From Escherichia coli (GTDB lineage Bacteria > Pseudomonadota > Gammaproteobacteria > Enterobacterales > Enterobacteriaceae), in the NCBI RefSeq assembly GCF_044324785.1, contig NZ_CP172127.1: a stretch of 64,000 nt of DNA, one strand, 5' to 3'. Both the position numbers and the translations under genes were made by a program. The notes beneath the pieces are model-generated. The model was not told the DNA's origin, ran no database searches, and was given only the letters and a program-made list of their open reading frames with translations. Below, in pieces: positions 53,227 to 61,878 of the stretch; the first letter of the stretch is position 1; every line of letters begins with the position of its first letter.

Positions 53227-55209
53227 TTAACGGCTCTGCTTTCTCAACAAATAGATAAAATACGGCGCGCCGATAAAGGTCGACAGCAGCCCCGCTGGGA
53301 TCTGGAATGGAAACAGCACCATCCGCCCACACCAGTCAGCGAACACCAGCAGTAAACCACCCACCAGCGCCGAAATTACGATGTGCGGCATCGTCCGTCG
53401 AAAGCCCATCATCCGCGCAATATGCGGTGCCATTAAACCAACAAAACTCAACGGTCCAATGGTCATTGTCGCGGTCGCCGTCAGGCAAGCCGCTAACAGC
53501 AGCAGCGCAATTCGCGTCGGCGTCAGCGCCATTCCCACGGCTCGTGCGGTATCACCTCCCAGCGGTAAAATGGTCAGCCAGCGGCGGCACAGCGGGGTAA
53601 TCGCCAGCAAAATCACCATCACAATTCCCGTGCGCCAGACCTGCGCATCGGTCGCGTTGTAGGTCGAACCGGAAATCCAGGTCAGAACTTGCGCCATTCG
53701 CGGGTCACCACTTGCCTGCAACATCATCAAAAGCATGGTGAACGCGGTACTTAACGCCATCCCCGCCAGTAACATGCGGTGTGGGGAAAATCCACCGCGT
53801 CCGGCGGCGATCATAATGATCAACAGCGTCACTGCCGCCCCGAGACTTCCCGCGGGTAACAGCCAGCCAAAGGCATTACCCGGCACCAGAAACAGCATTA
53901 ATACCACGCCAAACGCCGCGCCGGAGCTAATCCCCAGCACTTCCGGGCTTGCCATCGGGTTGCCGGTCAGCCGCTGAATAATACAGCCCGCCACCGCCAG
54001 CATGACGCCCGCAAACAGCGCCGCCATAATTCGCGGCCAGCGCCAGGGCATCAAATCCTCGAGCAACGCCCCGCTCGCCCACGTCCAGCCGTGCGCATCA
54101 CGACCAAACGACAGCGCCACCACCACAGCCATCAACAGCAGCACGCCGCCCGCGAGGGCAAACGCCAGCACATGTTGGCGTTCAGCAGCGACACGATCGT
54201 TCACCTTCATATCCGGCGCGCTAATGCTGCGTAAACGCGGCAGCAGCCACAGCAGCAGCGGCGCACCGAGGAGCGCAGTGACCGAACCGGTAGAAACTTC
54301 CATCCACACGCGAGTCAGCCAGAGGATGATTTGATCAGAAAGCCACAGAATTAACGCCCCAATCAGCGACGCCAGCATCAATCGTGGCAACAAACGCCGC
54401 GCCCCCAGCATTTTTGCCAGCAGCGGCGCGAACAACCCGATAAAGCCGATAATCCCCACTGCATTCACCAGCAGCGCACTGATGACTATCGCCAGCGACA
54501 GCGCCGCCAGACGCGCCAGCGACAAGGCCAGACCGAGATTGCGCGCCACGCCATCATCAAGCCCCATCAGGGTTAACGGGCGAAGTAGCAATAATGTCAG
54601 CATCACGCCGCCCAGCAGCTGCGGCCATAAACGCTCAACGCCGCCCCAGTCGGTTTGCGTCAGCGTTCCGGTGCTCCACAGGAACATGCTTTGTAGCTGG
54701 TCGTGATGGAAGATAACCAGTAACTGATTGATTGCTCCGCAATAAAGGCTCACCACCAGCCCCGCGAGGATCAGCGTTACCGGCGACAGCCGTTTCCCCC
54801 ACGCGACGCCAAAGACAATTAAGCCAACAACGCAAGCCCCTGCCAGCGCAGCAAACTGGCTCGCCATAGCACCTGGGATCGCCCAGAGCGTAGTGACGGT
54901 AATCCCCAGTTGCGCGCCTGTTGCAACGCCCAACGTCGTCGGTTCCGCCAGCGGGTTACGCAGCACTTGCTGAAACAGCACACCCACCAGCCCCAGGCCC
55001 GCGCCCACCAGCAGCGAAATCGCCAGACGCGGCAACAAGCTGTAGTGAAAAATCATCTGCTCGATGACATCGATATCCGGCGACCAGGCAGCCTGCGCCC
55101 ACTGGCTACGCGGCAGCGCTTGCGAAAAGTTCATCCAGGTGAGCGCCGCTGCGACAATCACCAGCAGCGCCAGCAATAACGCCGGGAAAAGCGCAATTCG
55201 TTTACTCAC
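53227..55209 (-). CDS. fhuB: Ferric hydroxamate ABC transporter permease
   Basis: 660-aa duplicated permease recognised as FhuB; overlaps fhuD stop by 4 nt. Confidence 0.95.
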   Translation of the reverse strand: MSKRIALFPALLLALLVIVAAALTWMNFSQALPRSQWAQAAWSPDIDVIEQMIFHYSLLPRLAISLLVGAGLGLVGVLFQQVLRNPLAEPTTLGVATGAQLGITVTTLWAIPGAMASQFAALAGACVVGLIVFGVAWGKRLSPVTLILAGLVVSLYCGAINQLLVIFHHDQLQSMFLWSTGTLTQTDWGGVERLWPQLLGGVMLTLLLLRPLTLMGLDDGVARNLGLALSLARLAALSLAIVISALLVNAVGIIGFIGLFAPLLAKMLGARRLLPRLMLASLIGALILWLSDQIILWLTRVWMEVSTGSVTALLGAPLLLWLLPRLRSISAPDMKVNDRVAAERQHVLAFALAGGVLLLMAVVVALSFGRDAHGWTWASGALLEDLMPWRWPRIMAALFAGVMLAVAGCIIQRLTGNPMASPEVLGISSGAAFGVVLMLFLVPGNAFGWLLPAGSLGAAVTLLIIMIAAGRGGFSPHRMLLAGMALSTAFTMLLMMLQASGDPRMAQVLTWISGSTYNATDAQVWRTGIVMVILLAITPLCRRWLTILPLGGDTARAVGMALTPTRIALLLLAACLTATATMTIGPLSFVGLMAPHIARMMGFRRTMPHIVISALVGGLLLVFADWCGRMVLFPFQIPAGLLSTFIGAPYFIYLLRKQSR

Positions 55210-56096
55210 GCTTTACCTCCGATGGCGTTATCCAGAATACGCACAAAGTGCATTGCCGAAAGCGTCGCGCCATAGAACCAGACCGCCGGAACGCGCTGAA
55301 AACGTCCTGCACGGACAAACGGCATGGCCTGCCACAGCGGGGTTGCCATTAGCGCATCCATGTCTTTGCTGTTGTCGTGATCAAAACAGAGCACATCAAC
55401 GTCTTTATACGCCGCCAGACGATCGATACTGACGGCGGTACTGCCCCAGAAGTTGGTTTCCCCTTGCCAGGCATTTGGGATGCCGTACTCATCAAGAATT
55501 TCCTGGAACAAGCTGTTTGGACCGAAGACCAGCATATGGCGCGGATCGATAAGCGTCGTCAGCAATAACGGGCGTGCACCACGCTTCACAAAGCGGGGTT
55601 TCATGCTGCGGATAAAGTCTTCATATTGCGCTAAATGCGTTTCTGCTGCGCTTTGCAGGTTAAGTAAATCTGCCATTTCCGTCAGTGATTTACGCGCCAT
55701 CACCAGCGGCTGTTTGCCGTCGCTGAAGTTAAATCCGCGCCCCGGCGCAATGCGTGCCAGCATTTCTGGTGAAGGGCCATATCCTGCCGACCAGACCATA
55801 AACGACGGTTTCATTTCGGTCAGCAGTTCAAGGTTAGGTTCTGTACGCAAACCAACGTCAATCACTGAGTCCGGCAATGGCGGTTCGCTGACCCACAGGC
55901 GATAGTTGATGGTATCCGCCACGCCGTAAGGCACGATGCCGAGCGCCAGCAGTAATTCCACCGGCAACCACTCCAGCGCCACAATACGATTGGGATCAAT
56001 AGCCGCCGCGTGGGCGGTATTCATCTGCCATAACAACGGAGAAAGCGCCATCGCCGTTAACAGTCGGCGGCGCGAAATAAGAGGTAAGCCGCTCAT
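55206..56096 (-). CDS. fhuD: Ferric hydroxamate periplasmic binding protein
   Basis: 296-aa protein with Tat-like signal (SRRRLLTAMA); recognised FhuD. Confidence 0.93.
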   Translation of the reverse strand: MSGLPLISRRRLLTAMALSPLLWQMNTAHAAAIDPNRIVALEWLPVELLLALGIVPYGVADTINYRLWVSEPPLPDSVIDVGLRTEPNLELLTEMKPSFMVWSAGYGPSPEMLARIAPGRGFNFSDGKQPLVMARKSLTEMADLLNLQSAAETHLAQYEDFIRSMKPRFVKRGARPLLLTTLIDPRHMLVFGPNSLFQEILDEYGIPNAWQGETNFWGSTAVSIDRLAAYKDVDVLCFDHDNSKDMDALMATPLWQAMPFVRAGRFQRVPAVWFYGATLSAMHFVRILDNAIGGKA

Positions 56097-56893
56097 CAAT
56101 AAACAAAACTCACAGGTGCAGCACCCGCCGGATGCGGCAGAATACCCATCGGGATGCCATAAATCATTTCGAGGGTTTCGCCGCGCATAATTTCCGCAGG
56201 CGTTCCCTGAGCAATCATTTCACCGCCGCGCAGGGCGACCAGATAATCACAGTAACGCGCAGCCATATTGATATCGTGCAGCACGGCAATGACCGTCAGG
56301 CCACGCTCCTGACTTAAACGATGCACCAGCGCCAGCACATCAACCTGGTGGGCGATATCCAGCGCCGAGGTCGGTTCGTCGAGCAACAGACAACGGCTAT
56401 CCTGCGCCACCAGCATGGCGATCCACGCCCGCTGACGTTCGCCGCCAGAGAGACTATCGACCAGCCGATGCGCCAGCGGTTTTAAGCCAACCAGCGAGAT
56501 AGCTTCCTCGACCTTTTCGCGATCTGCCGCACCAAAGCGCCCCAGCGCGCCATGCCACGGGTAACGACCAATCGCCACCAGTTCACGCACCGTCATCCCT
56601 TCTGCCGGAGGAAGCTGCTGCGGCAAATAAGCCACTTTGCGGGCAAACGCTTTGCTGCTCCAGCTTTCCAGCGGTTGGGCATCAAGAAGAATCTCCCCTT
56701 CCGACGGCGGCTGGTGACGACCAAGCATTTTGAGCAGAGTGGATTTACCAGAACCGTTGTGACCAATCAAACCAGTCACTTTCCCGGCAGGAAAGGTTAA
56801 CGACAGCGGATGCAAAAGCGTGCGCCCTGGCACACGAAAGGAGATATTACGCAGTGCAAAAGTGGTATCGGAATGATTCGTGTATTCCTGCAT
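56096..56893 (-). CDS. fhuC: Ferric hydroxamate ABC transporter ATPase
   Basis: 265-aa protein recognised (Walker A GHNGSGKST, LSGGERQR); start at MQEYTNHSD inside the longer ORF; 1-nt overlap with fhuD. Confidence 0.93.
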   Translation of the reverse strand: MQEYTNHSDTTFALRNISFRVPGRTLLHPLSLTFPAGKVTGLIGHNGSGKSTLLKMLGRHQPPSEGEILLDAQPLESWSSKAFARKVAYLPQQLPPAEGMTVRELVAIGRYPWHGALGRFGAADREKVEEAISLVGLKPLAHRLVDSLSGGERQRAWIAMLVAQDSRCLLLDEPTSALDIAHQVDVLALVHRLSQERGLTVIAVLHDINMAARYCDYLVALRGGEMIAQGTPAEIMRGETLEMIYGIPMGILPHPAGAAPVSFVY

Positions 56894-56943
56894 AACAGCC
56901 AACTTGTGAAGCGGGCACGGAAATCCGTGCCCCAAAGGAAAAA

Positions 56944-59133
56944 TTAGAAACGGAAGGTTGCGGTTGCAACGACCTGACGTTCTGCGCCCCAGAAGCAGCC
57001 ATAGGTCTGGAAGCAACTGGCAACATACTCACGATCGAGCAAATTGTTGACGTTCACAGCAAGGCTGGATCCCGCCATACCAAAGCGTGCCAGATCATAT
57101 TTTACAACAGCATCCATTACAGCTGCGCTACCCACTTTAAAAGTGTTCGCCGGATCACCATAGCTGGAACCAATAAAACGACCACCTGTTCCCAATGTTA
57201 AACCAGAAAGCGGCCCTTCATTGAAGGTATAATCCCCCCAGAGAGATGCCATATGCTCCGGTACTTGTTCTGGAGTTTTACCTTTGAGATTGGTGTCTTT
57301 GGTGTATTCCGCATCGGTGTAGGTATAAGAAGCCGTCAAGTTAATATTGGCATTTAACGCCGCTTTTGCTTCAAGTTCCACACCACGAGCGCGAATCTCA
57401 CCTGCCGGGACTTGCGCTAATGGGTTTGTTGGGTCTGCTGTCAGGTTATTTGTTTTCGTCAATTGATAGACTGCGCCCGTAACAACGACCGGCATATCAT
57501 TCGGAACATATTTTACGCCAGCTTCATACTGTTCACCTTTCGATGGCTTATAGGAAACGCGCGGGTTGCTCCACAGATCGAAAGCACTCGGTTCAAAGGA
57601 CTGGCTATAGCTAAAGTAAGGTGAAATACCATTATCGAATAAGTAATTTACACCACCGCGCCAGGTGAACTGATGATCATTGCGCTCAATATAACCTTCA
57701 GTCGGCGTATAAGAGTTTTCACGAACAGTGGTCGCTTGCTTAGACCAATCGTAGCGTCCCCCCAGAGTGAATACCCATTTATTCCATTCCGCCTGATCCT
57801 GAACATAAATACCTGTTTGTTTGCTTTCATTCATCTGGTATGGCTCTGCGCTACCAAATGCAAAGTATTCAGGATGGTATTTGTTATAAAGATCGATGGA
57901 TGGTGCAGATCCAAAGCTGGCATTGATATCATTGCGCATACGCATGAAGTCTACCCCTGTCAGCAAAGTATGCCCGACGTCACCTGTAGCAAACTTACTT
58001 TCAAGCTGGGTATCAACGCTAAAGTTTTGTAGACGCTCATTATCCACCACTGTCCCGCGGTTTAGGGTATGACCATCGCTGGCAATCCCTGTGCCATAAA
58101 CACTTTTCTGTGAGGTTTTCATTTCACTGAAACGCAGATTCTGACGCACGGTGAAGGTGTCATTAAAACCATGTTCAAAACTATATCCCACCATTTTCTG
58201 GTTACGGGAGTATGTATTATTCGATGCACCTTCATTGAAGTCAGTCGGTAGACGCTTACCATTAGGCAATGGCTCAACGGTCCCCTCTTTCGGCAACCAA
58301 CCGTAATAACCCGTTTCTGGTTCGTTCTGAAAATAGGACAGGAAAGTAAAATTGGTTTTGTCGTCTGGACGCCATGAGAATGATGGAGCAATGGTATAAC
58401 GCTGAGATTCAGAGTTTTTCTGCTGTTCGTTTGTTGAGCGTGCGAGGCCAGTCAAACGGTAGGAGAACTCACCGTTATCATCCAGCGCATCACTGAAATC
58501 GAATCCGGTCTGAAACAGATTATCCGTCCCCATTTTAAACTGAATTTCTTTCAGGGGTTCAGTTGTCGGACGCTTACTCACCATAGAAATAATCCCACCA
58601 GGATTACTTTTCCCATAGAGAACAGACGTCGGCCCGCGCATCAGTTCAACCCTCTCGAGCATGTAAGGATCAATCACAGCATCGTTATAAAAGTTGCCCT
58701 GAAGTTTTAGTCCATCAAGGTAATTATTTTGATTCAGACCAACAGATGAGAAACCACGAATGATAACAAAATCATATGTATTAGAAGCACCACGACTGCT
58801 AACCGTAACGCCAGGTGTATAACCTAATGCTTCTTTTACAGACTGAAATTGATGCATCTGCATCTCTTCATTTGTCACAACCGAAATAGACTGCGGCGTT
58901 TTTTCAATTGGTGTATCCGTTTTAGTCGCAGTAGCAGAGTGCTTCGCCGCAATAGTTGCAGCCGGTCCCCATGCGCTTTCTTGCGGCGCAGGTGCAGCGG
59001 TAACGGTGATAGTGTCTTCTTTCGGTTCAACCGCTGCCTGTGCATAAACAGACATGCCGCTAACCGCTGTGGCTACTACAACTGCGATTTTACGCAGTGA
59101 GTGTTTTGGCTGAGCAGTTTTGGAACGCGCCAT
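56944..59133 (-). CDS. fhuA: TonB-dependent ferrichrome outer-membrane receptor FhuA, divergent allele (729 aa)
   Basis: Signal peptide and TonB box (DTITVTA) plus C-terminal barrel end (ASCFQTYGCFWGAERQVVATATFRF) recognised; much of the intervening sequence differs from the K-12 protein as I recall it. Confidence 0.9.
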   Translation of the reverse strand: MARSKTAQPKHSLRKIAVVVATAVSGMSVYAQAAVEPKEDTITVTAAPAPQESAWGPAATIAAKHSATATKTDTPIEKTPQSISVVTNEEMQMHQFQSVKEALGYTPGVTVSSRGASNTYDFVIIRGFSSVGLNQNNYLDGLKLQGNFYNDAVIDPYMLERVELMRGPTSVLYGKSNPGGIISMVSKRPTTEPLKEIQFKMGTDNLFQTGFDFSDALDDNGEFSYRLTGLARSTNEQQKNSESQRYTIAPSFSWRPDDKTNFTFLSYFQNEPETGYYGWLPKEGTVEPLPNGKRLPTDFNEGASNNTYSRNQKMVGYSFEHGFNDTFTVRQNLRFSEMKTSQKSVYGTGIASDGHTLNRGTVVDNERLQNFSVDTQLESKFATGDVGHTLLTGVDFMRMRNDINASFGSAPSIDLYNKYHPEYFAFGSAEPYQMNESKQTGIYVQDQAEWNKWVFTLGGRYDWSKQATTVRENSYTPTEGYIERNDHQFTWRGGVNYLFDNGISPYFSYSQSFEPSAFDLWSNPRVSYKPSKGEQYEAGVKYVPNDMPVVVTGAVYQLTKTNNLTADPTNPLAQVPAGEIRARGVELEAKAALNANINLTASYTYTDAEYTKDTNLKGKTPEQVPEHMASLWGDYTFNEGPLSGLTLGTGGRFIGSSYGDPANTFKVGSAAVMDAVVKYDLARFGMAGSSLAVNVNNLLDREYVASCFQTYGCFWGAERQVVATATFRF

Positions 59134-59164
59134 TGGTATATCTCTGATGTAAAGTGAATGATAA

Positions 59165-59195
59165 CGTAAACGAGAATGATTATTATAAAGATAAG
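59165..59195 (-). promoter_or_regulatory. Fur box in fhuA promoter
   Basis: Minus strand reads TTATAATAATCATTCTCGTTTACGTTATCATTC about 30-60 nt upstream of fhuA ATG, matching GATAATGATAATCATTATC-type Fur operator. Confidence 0.55.
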
Positions 59196-59352
59196 ATAAT
59201 ATTCGAAACGCTGGCGGGTTCGCAAGCGGTACGCAATCTGAGCGTTCCTGAAGGGTTAATAAACAACCAGATGAAAAGAAAGGGTTAATACTTTGGGTGG
59301 GATGTTATTTTACCGGATGGCTACTCGCCATCCGGTATGTCACGCTTAGACG

Positions 59353-61878
59353 TTAATTACTACCAAACATATCCTTGATCCAACCAGCTACACCGTCGCT
59401 GTCTTTCTGCTCTTGCTGAGCAGGTTGCTGTTGCTGCGGCTGAGAAGACTGATCAAACGGATTGCCTGACGGTTGCTGCTGCATCTCACTCTGCTGGCAC
59501 AGCGATTGCGGATCGCTGGTCCAGACCGGCAAGACACGCATACCACCGCTGCAAACAAAGTTGCCGTCGTAGTCCACGCCCATATCTGCAATATCTTCTG
59601 GCGGAACAAGATTTAGCGGCGTTGGCGTCTGGTTAGCCAGATAACGCTGATAAATCGACATTGCCCCGCTGGCTCCATACAGTTTGGTCGGCTGGTTGTT
59701 ATCACGGCCGACCCAGGTGATGGTCACCGTGCTGCCGTCAATGCCCGCAAACCAGGTATCTACGTTGTTGTTGGTAGTCCCGGTTTTTCCCGCCAGATGC
59801 AGATTTGGATATTTCGCCCCAAGCTGACGCCCCGTACCACGTTGTACCACCTGCTGCATGGTCCATAGTGTCAGATACGCCGCCTGCGCCGGAACAGCGC
59901 GTTCTGCCTGCGGGAAGCTCTGATACAGCACCTTGCCATCTTCCGCGATTACCGAACGCAGCGCAGAAAGCGGAGCACGGTTACCGCCGCTGGCGATGGT
60001 CTGGAATGCCTGCGCCACTTCGATTGGCGTTAAGTTCAACGCCCCCAGCAGCATCGCCGGAACCGGATGCAGCTGATCTTTCGGTACGCCCAGTTTAATC
60101 CAGGTCTCCGTAACCGCAGGCAGCCCCAGCGCCATCCCCAGATTTACCGTCGGCACGTTCATCGAACGGGTCAACGCATCCACCAGCATCACTCTGCCGC
60201 TTTCGCTATAACGACGGTCATCGTTCTGCGGTGACCAGACCTGGCCATTTGGCTGACGCAGCGCGATTGGCGCATCCGCAATCCACGTATTCAGACGATA
60301 GATTTTCGGCTGGCTTAAAGCCGTCAGATAAGTCGCTGGTTTTGCAAGGGAACCAATCGAACGACGCGCCTGCATCGCACGGTTGTAGCCCGCAAACTGC
60401 GGCTCAGAACCACCGACCATCGCACGAACTTCACCGCTAAAGCGGTCAACAACCACAATCGCGGTTTCAAGATCGCTCAACTTACGCTGTTTCTTCAGTG
60501 CCGGAATGCCTTCCACGGCGGCTTTTTCTGCCGCGTCCTGGGCCACCGAGTCAAAGGTAGTGAAGATCTTCACGCCGGAGAGATCTTTTACCTTATCGCC
60601 TAATTTCGCCTGCAGCTCCTGACGCACCAGTTGCATAAAGGCTGGCTGAGGAGAGATCACCCCACCGCGCGGCTGAACACCCAGCGGACGTGCACTCAAC
60701 ATATCATAGAGTTCTTGATCAATAATCTGTTGCTGTTGCAGCAAACGTAGCACCAGGTTACGTCGCTCCAGCGCCAGTTTCGGGTTACGCCACGGGTTGT
60801 AGATGGACGCCCCTTTAACCATACCCACCAACAGCGCCTGCTGATCGAGGCTCAATTCTTCTACCGGACGACCAAAGTAATACAAGCTCGCCAGCGGGAA
60901 GCCGCGGATTTCGTTGTCGCCGCTCTGACCGAGATACACCTCGTTCATATACAGCTCAAGAATACGGTCTTTGCTGTAACGCGCGTCCATGATCAGCGCC
61001 ATGTAAGCTTCGTTCGCTTTACGCCAGTAAGAGCGCTCGCTGGAGAGGAACAGGTTTTTCACCAGCTGTTGCGTCAGCGTACTCGCACCCTGCACCGTGC
61101 GTCCGGCGGTCAGGTTTGCCAGCACCGCACGCCCAATTGAGTAGAGGCTGATCCCATCATGTTCGTAGAAATGACGGTCTTCTGTCGCCAGCAAAGTATC
61201 CACCAGCAAATCCGGGAAACCACTGCGCGGCACAAACAGACGCTGCTCACCGTTTGGCGAAGAGATCATGGTGATCAGACGCGGATCAAGACGGAAGAAA
61301 CCGAACTGACGGTTGTTCTCCATATTGACGATCGTCGCCAGATGATCGCCATCAAAGGTCAGACGTGCACGCACCTGCCCTTCTTTACTGTCCGGGAAAT
61401 CAAACGGACGGCGGATCATCTCAATGCTGTTGGCCTGCACGGTAAATTCGCCGGGACGGGTCATTTTCGACACCTGACGATACTGGGTCGCCTCCAGCAG
61501 CTTCACCATCTCGTTCTTGCTGATGGTCATGTCTGGCTCAAGGTTGACCATCCGGCCATAAACTGCCGCGGGCAGTTGCCAGACCTTACCATCAATACGG
61601 CTGCGAATTTTTTGATCGAGATAAACGCCGTAAATGGCGATCAGCACGGCAAAAACGATAGCCAGTTTTAGCAGCAGCCATAGCCAGCCGCGTTTGCCAC
61701 GAGGCTTACGCCCTTTGCCTTTGCCCTTACCTTTGCGCGGCATCGGTTCTTCATCCTCATAGTCATCATAATCGTCGTAATCATCGTCATCTTCGTAACG
61801 ACGACGGCTTACCTTTTGTTTGACCGGACGCGTCGGTTTCCCTTTGCGTCCAATTGGCTCGCGGTCATTCCCGGCCAT
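59353..61878 (-). CDS. mrcB: Penicillin-binding protein 1B
   Basis: Recognised MrcB (acidic [15 protein letters not shown] and KGKGKGKG N-terminal repeats, TM anchor, transglycosylase and transpeptidase domains); start at MAGNDREP. Confidence 0.95.

Follow-up and report, generated by a model that had tools for sequence, protein, structure and literature searches.

The window (the whole 64,000-nucleotide stretch of Escherichia coli DNA that was analysed) carries an intact fhuA gene of 729 codons. mrcB lies upstream, and fhuC, fhuD, and fhuB follow downstream. This mrcB-fhuACDB order is the same in K-12 and in strain 200164. A place at the head of fhuACDB, in the interval between mrcB and hemL, is the one expected of fhuA. 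The main features of the locus are as follows.

56944..59133, minus strand: fhuA coding sequence, 729 amino acids including a 33-residue signal peptide, very probably an E3/S2-type allele (open reading frame and profile matches)
53227..56893, minus strand: fhuC, fhuD, and fhuB, which complete the fhuACDB operon and match K-12 at 95-100% identity
58967..59133, minus strand: 5' end of fhuA, encoding the signal peptide and the N-terminus in which the TonB-box region lies, without a mismatch to K-12 (100% identity)
57004..58966, minus strand: divergent allelic block, approximately codons 56-710, with about 70% nucleotide identity to K-12 fhuA and a GC content of 43-47%

Several matches support the identity of the product. 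With the NCBIfam profile NF007465 ("ferrichrome porin FhuA") it reaches 1409 bits, where the cutoff is 803, over residues 1-729 and profile positions 1-726. The Pfam domains Plug and TonB_dep_Rec_b-barrel are both matched, and HMMER pairs the protein with the PDB entries of solved K-12 FhuA (8a60, 1by3) at E=0. The signal peptide is identical to that of K-12 at 33 of 33 positions. Indeed, there are zero mismatches to K-12 over 58967-59290, which includes the region upstream of fhuA. An open reading frame on the opposite strand inside fhuA (57673..58032, plus strand) exists on paper only and was set aside.

The window protein is predicted with high confidence to fold as FhuA. An AF2 model, made with an alignment of 150 diverse homologues as input, has a pLDDT of 92.1, a pTM of 0.90, and 22 barrel strands. 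Foldseek superposes it on the crystal structure 1BY5 with a TM score of 0.94 and an rmsd of 1.8 A. The model and the Pfam domains both point to the plug (cork) and 22-strand beta-barrel architecture. Loop boundaries were taken from the DSSP elements of this model, and a UniProt-style membrane topology gives the same picture.

The original prediction had focused on loop L4, in the region of 58050-58200, which corresponds to residues 312-362 of the window FhuA. It described an L4 that is shorter than in K-12 and lacks cysteines. The elements concerned are these.

58084..58155, minus strand: strand b7, running into L4, residues 327-350 (AF2 DSSP)
58069..58083, minus strand: L4 apex ASDGH, residues 351-355 (AF2 DSSP and alignments)
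57985..58068, minus strand: strand b8, running out of L4, residues 356-383 (AF2 DSSP)
58048..58095, minus strand: GTGIASDGHTLNRGTV, the peptide that the prediction quoted, residues 347-362 (translation)

This part of the prediction holds. L4 is a 5-residue turn (ASDGH) in the window FhuA, whereas in K-12 it has 22 residues (C318-H339) and is stapled by the Cys318-Cys329 pair. HMMER alignments to 8a60 and 1by3 place a single 17-residue gap in L4 opposite K-12 ...GYGVCSDPANAYSKQCAALAPADKGHYLARKY..., a stretch also given as ...VCSDPANAYSKQCAALAPADKGH..., and they agree with the K-12 loop sequence that the prediction gave. Both elements of the K-12-type (E1) gating loop, the long stapled L4 and the 334-PADKGH-339 segment, are missing. 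The only cysteines in the window FhuA are C707 and C713, as against C318, C329, C692, and C698 in mature K-12 FhuA. The change is also extracellular, as proposed, and does not fall in a membrane strand or a periplasmic turn. The model that superposes on crystal FhuA has its turn at 351-355 between b7 and b8. Published delta-L4 constructs remove mature residues 318-339, and residues 334-339 of K-12 FhuA have been described as belonging to loop 4.

Are the missing cysteines an event of their own? A survey of L4 in the window FhuA and in the FhuAs of 79 enterobacterial species-representative genomes argues against this. The length of the L4 apex is bimodal among these 80 proteins. The loop is short (3-6 residues) in 41 of them and every one of the 41 has 0 cysteines, whereas it is long (16-28 residues) in 38 and every one of these has exactly 2. 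The remaining protein is intermediate, with 10 residues and 0 cysteines. It follows that the missing cysteines go with the short loop. Where there is no long L4 to staple, its cysteine pair is missing as well, and a separate loss of cysteines is not supported. Within the family, the short L4 is also no less usual than the K-12 form. The motif IA[AS]DGHT is found again in Salmonella, Citrobacter sp., Superficieibacter, Lelliottia, Kluyvera intermedia, Kosakonia, Scandinavium-like genomes, and others.

L4 is not the only part of the protein that departs from K-12. The other loops of interest are listed here, with all comparisons made to K-12.

58216..58311, minus strand: L3, residues 275-306, about 30/31 to 31/32 identical, with Y244 and W246 kept
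57844..57891, minus strand: L5, residues 415-430, 9 K-12 positions missing and 1 extra, 5 of 15 aligned residues identical
57697..57723, minus strand: L6, residues 471-479, lengthened by 5 residues, identity at 1 of 4 aligned positions
57544..57591, minus strand: L7, residues 515-530, lengthened by 2 residues, identity at 3 of 14 aligned positions
57415..57435, minus strand: L8 apex, residues 567-573, equal in length, DPEGSFF in K-12 and DPTNPLA here, 2 of 7 residues identical
56995..57021, minus strand: L11 motif ASCFQTYGC, with C707 and C713 equivalent to K-12 mature C692 and C698 (translation)

All of the protein indels relative to K-12 fall in four loops (L4 -17, L5 -9/+1, L6 +5, and L7 +2). 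The L8 apex keeps its length but exchanges F557 for L and F558 for A. At the other extreme are L10 (14/15 identical) and L11 (21/23 identical). The C-terminal cysteine pair is retained, as had been stated, and 56992-57021 on the minus strand translates to ASCFQTYGCF. Broken down by structural class, identity to K-12 is highest in the cork (82%), followed by the periplasmic turns (79%), the DSSP strands (76%), and the loops (69%).

The divergence is not confined to the loops either. A cluster of mismatches to K-12 runs from 58966 to 57004, a block of 1.96 kb, so that the allele differs over fhuA nucleotides ~160-2170. In 100-nucleotide windows the identity is 52-85% from 58917 down to 57003, and it drops to 36% in the window with the L4 indel. 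Identity is back at 96-100% in most 100-nucleotide windows of the flanking sequence, which comprises fhuC at one end and, at the other, mrcB, the intergenic spacer, and the opening ~165 nucleotides of fhuA itself. A divergent block enclosed by K-12-like gene ends and flanks is the pattern expected from homologous recombination of a whole allele. To call L4 "replaced" is therefore misleading, since approximately codons 56-710 are divergent and the short loop is common to Salmonella and about half of the species representatives.

The pattern of indels has a precedent. Wang et al. (2018; bioRxiv 10.1101/320069; Infect Immun 86:e00573-18) sorted FhuA into clusters E1-E4 in E. coli and S1-S2 in Salmonella. 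Their E3/S2 type is defined by insertions in L6 and L7 (Indels 5 and 6, respectively) and by the absence of those in L4 and L5 (Indels 3 and 4). The window protein matches this definition exactly, and this identifies the window fhuA as an E3 allele. It is very probable that the whole description applies, namely an E3 allele encoding an intact ferrichrome transporter with an altered outer rim, divergence across the whole gene, and a different docking surface. Among protein clusters, that of Salmonella enterica FhuA (729 amino acids; Salmonella P0001) comes nearest, with 95% identity, as against 77% both to K-12 and to E2 alleles. The window protein thus groups with S2-type FhuA of Salmonella and not with E1 or E2 of E. 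coli.

Nor is the allele rare. L4-region types were called in 5,426 complete E. coli genomes, with the window type requiring at least 95% nucleotide identity. The K-12 type is found in 3,700 genomes (68%), the E2 family type in 1,069 (20%), and the window (E3) type in 562 (10.4%). By subtraction, ~95 genomes (~2%) have another type or none. A region present in 562 of 5,426 genomes is neither chance nor a sequencing artefact. The short-L4 E3 allele is a common and ordinary natural variant that Wang et al. (2018) had already described.

The next question is where this allele came from. The divergent block is saturated at synonymous sites in two comparisons, with a pS of 0.755 against K-12 and of 0.79 against Salmonella. 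The pN against Salmonella is only 0.027, and dN is about equal in the loops (0.029) and in the rest of the protein (0.027). The protein is conserved across genera. The window fhuA is under strong purifying selection. GC3 is 0.42 in the block, whereas it is 0.53 in K-12 fhuA, 0.56 in Salmonella, and 0.58-0.61 in the flanking genes. Lastly, E3 alleles of different E. coli are closer to each other than their flanks are. Four-fold differences between E3 genomes are 0.003 and 0.07 in fhuA, and 0.08-0.10 and 0.16-0.20 in fhuC/fhuD of the same pairs.

These observations best fit the arrival of E3 from an unsampled lineage, followed by recombinational spread within E. coli. The similarity of E3 alleles and a GC3 that has not drifted both fit a later arrival and then a spread through recombination. 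Among the enterobacterial species-representative genomes, none exceeds ~80% nucleotide identity to the block. In its full form the idea is that E3 is a foreign whole-gene cassette with a GC3 of 0.42, that it came from an unsampled enterobacterial lineage and spread by homologous recombination via the conserved gene ends, that its protein, surface loops included, stays nearly constant across genera, and that there was no recent exchange with Salmonella. This full form is put forward tentatively.

Perhaps E3 was never imported. It might instead be an ancient polymorphism that predates the split of E. coli and Salmonella and has been kept by trans-species balancing selection. Synonymous saturation against both the K-12 and the Salmonella alleles would be in keeping with this, as would a protein conserved across genera. 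In addition, the allele types of the two species form pairs, E1 with S1 and E3 with S2 (Wang et al., 2018). However, two observations speak against it. The fhuA sequences of E3 genomes resemble each other more closely than the neighbouring genes do, and GC3 has stayed at 0.42 without drifting to the E. coli value. On balance this explanation is rather unlikely.

A recent horizontal import of Salmonella fhuA into E. coli is very unlikely. It would account for the 95% protein identity to Salmonella enterica FhuA, exchange of fhuA between species was proposed by Wang et al. (2018), and in Salmonella fhuACDB is counted among the hot regions of recombination. However, at the nucleotide level the block is only ~80% identical to Salmonella, and 67% of its four-fold sites differ as against 44-49% in the flanking genes (fhuC, fhuD, and mrcB). 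GC3 also disagrees (0.42 in the block, 0.56 in Salmonella). For the Salmonella allele that was sampled, nucleotide identity, four-fold sites, and GC3 together refute a recent import. A gene in decay, whose product is unstable without the L4 disulfide and which is turning into a pseudogene, is most improbable, for although one E3 allele is frameshifted (strain Br_112_kylling) and the fhuA genes of Typhi and Paratyphi A are reported to be truncated, the 729-residue reading frame is intact, pN is very low in comparisons with distant relatives in which synonymous sites are saturated, the predicted fold is of high confidence, the upstream region is identical to K-12, and a cysteine-free short L4 is the norm in half of the sampled genera. 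Equally far-fetched is a local, recent event that deleted or replaced only L4 in a K-12-like gene, for example under phage selection, since the largest single indel is indeed L4 (17 residues, both cysteines among them) but the sequence around it is not K-12-like, 1.96 kb is divergent at ~70% nucleotide identity and a pS of 0.755, four more loops differ, and the identical L4 occurs in 562 E. coli genomes and many genera; the divergence outside L4 rules such a deletion out.

If E3 did arrive as a foreign cassette, this would imply that frequency-dependent selection maintains discrete "receptor types", with no continuous diversification of the receptor.

What might the E3 protein do? Judged from its sequence, it is most likely an intact ferrichrome transporter with a different docking surface for phages and colicin. 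It would be a complete TonB-dependent transporter built as a 22-strand barrel with a cork. The cork and the ligand loops L3, L10, and L11 are close to those of K-12 and the TonB-box region is identical, and ferrichrome import is probably retained. Y244 and W246 are named in the literature as ferrichrome-binding sites, and Y116 is also named there as a ferrichrome contact. There may be changes in the pocket itself. Three putative ligand-pocket positions differ from K-12 (Q100 to L, Y315 to T, and K344 to G), so that the affinity for ligand could be altered. The list of contacts from which these three come is partly unreliable, as its position 702 is Ala in K-12, and little weight is placed on it.

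The outer rim is another matter. It combines a tight L4 hairpin, a shorter L5, longer L6 and L7, and a substituted L8 tip. Phages and toxins adapted to K-12-type FhuA (T1, phi80, T5, colicin M) would be expected to bind such a docking surface weakly, if they bind it at all. In the structure of the T5 receptor-binding protein pb5 with FhuA, pb5 touches all of the loops but EL1-EL3, and 23 of the 27 hydrogen bonds come from EL4, EL5, and EL8. These main hydrogen-bonding loops are the ones deleted or replaced in the window FhuA. The specificity loops cited by Wang et al. (2018; bioRxiv 10.1101/320069) are L4, L5, and L8 for T1 and phi80 and L5 and L8 for T5. For colicin M and antibiotics they are L3, L4, L7, L8, and L11. 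It is somewhat probable that sensitivity to K-12-adapted FhuA ligands is reduced or absent, and that this would come from the combined change in L4 to L8 and not from L4 alone.

Loss of T5 sensitivity in E3 FhuA is plausible in particular. T5 is not adsorbed by S. Typhimurium, although this could reflect shielding by O-antigen and not the FhuA type. T5 binding survives single-loop deletions except that of L8, and the pb5 interface has been called resilient. An older result with a PADKGH peptide was not reproduced. Conversely, ES18 uses Salmonella FhuA, and E3 FhuA may be open to phages adapted to the Salmonella type, those resembling ES18 among them. The original prediction was right about where L4 lies and how it differs, and is not supported as to replacement, separate cysteine loss, and L4 as the single most likely site of functional change. 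L5, L6, L7, and the L8 apex differ too, and deleting L4 alone leaves T5 binding in place.

Wang et al. (2018; bioRxiv 10.1101/320069) wrote that differences in binding "need to be verified experimentally", and in the literature on natural FhuA variants and phage sensitivity we found no experimental work on E3-type FhuA. This matters because roughly a tenth of E. coli genomes encode a FhuA surface unlike that of the K-12 receptor behind nearly all work on phages, colicin M, and microcin. The FhuA type of a strain is an easily scored marker, of use in predicting phage host range, in composing therapy cocktails, and for antibiotics targeted to FhuA (albomycin-type Trojan horses). Apart from this practical value, there is nothing here that goes beyond Wang et al. 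(2018).

How does the window FhuA compare with known forms? The nearest is the E3/S2 cluster of Wang et al. (2018), with the same indel signature, the same locus, and 95% identity to Salmonella FhuA. At the protein level there is no difference. What is added lies at the DNA level, namely whole-gene divergence of E3 from K-12, synonymous saturation against Salmonella S2, and a low GC3. Together these make a poor fit to recent exchange between E3 and S2. A later paper from the same group presents FhuA as a standard example of "mosaic evolution" in outer-membrane proteins.

K-12 FhuA (E1; PDB 1BY3, 2FCP, 8A8C, and 8B14) shares the fold (TM 0.94), the operon, the first ~55 codons, the L11 disulfide pair, and near-identical L3, L10, and L11 loops. 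It differs in having an L4 of 22 residues instead of 5, the Cys318-Cys329 pair, a longer L5, shorter L6 and L7, and F557/F558 in L8. The E2 family (752 amino acids in ABU83972/Nissle, 749 in GN05652) likewise consists of natural alleles of this locus, found in ~20% of genomes. However, its L4 is longer still (25-28 residues) and contains the disulfide, unlike the window L4. E2 alleles depart from K-12 only in a central mosaic (~nt 990-1900), whereas the window allele does so across the whole gene.

The last comparison is with a laboratory construct. The L4 deletion mutant is reportedly resistant to T1 and phi80 and sensitive to T5. Its design (delta 318-339::NSEGS; Endriss and Braun, 2004; rebuilt by Lewis et al., 2023) leaves a 5-residue connector, equal in length to the natural ASDGH. 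Nevertheless, the two are not equivalent. The engineered protein retains the remaining K-12 loops, whereas the natural allele of the window also alters L5 to L8.

Between E. coli genomes, E3 fhuA genes are closer to one another than are the neighbouring fhuC and fhuD genes. When two other E. coli loci (L002 and L010) are compared with window positions 55206-59133, fhuA shows differences of 0.003 and 0.07 at four-fold sites, and its flanks show 0.08-0.20. Because the differences are lower in the gene than around it, these sequence comparisons suggest that E3 fhuA has moved among E. coli backgrounds via recombination.

The fhuA allelic block (window 57004-58966) has a GC content of 43-47% and a GC3 of 0.42, compared with 54-60% and about 0.6 in the flanks. 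GC3 is 0.53 in K-12 fhuA and 0.56 in Salmonella fhuA. No close DNA-level relative of the block was found among the sampled species, the best match having about 80% nucleotide identity.

Upstream of fhuA lies mrcB in both K-12 and the window, whereas in strain GN05652 (L003) fimbrial usher and fimbrial protein genes are directly upstream (positions 1-1281 of that locus). The glutamine-rich 3' end of mrcB (window ~59418-59508) has a 9-nt indel relative to K-12. Upstream of position -146, L010 and the window likewise have different sequences. The E. coli genome search gave three fhuA matches that are plasmid-borne and not chromosomal, all with K-12-type L4. An E3-type fhuA in strain Br_112_kylling (L005, NZ_CP182371.1) is 99.5% identical to that of the window across 69% of the gene, and is annotated as a frameshifted pseudogene.

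In the window and 79 enterobacterial species-representative genomes (L010-L089), the length of the L4 apex is bimodal and strictly coupled to cysteine content. A short apex of 3-6 residues occurs in 41 sequences, each lacking Cys; a long apex of 16-28 residues occurs in 38, every one with exactly two. The single intermediate apex (10 residues) has no Cys. One record, titled Chryseobacterium sp. 18061 (L067, CACSKA010000010.1), contains an enterobacterial-type fhuA (67% identical), and this assembly is probably mislabelled or contaminated.

The FhuA proteins of Salmonella and Shigella test strains have been described as 96-100% identical to that of laboratory E. coli (bioRxiv 10.1101/2022.09.22.509047). 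The S2-type protein of Salmonella shares only about 77% identity with K-12 FhuA. Perhaps S. bongori, a T5-sensitive species, has an E1/S1-type allele.

The E. coli genome search also returned 85 genomes matching window fhuA at 80-90% overall identity, none of which matches its L4 region at 80-95%. These may have E4 or mosaic alleles. E2-type genes (L003 and L004, compared with K-12, L001) encode proteins of 749 and 752 residues with a longer, disulfide-containing L4, and differ from K-12 only between about nucleotides 990 and 1900. In other words, E2 is a central mosaic, whereas E3 diverges from K-12 across the whole gene.
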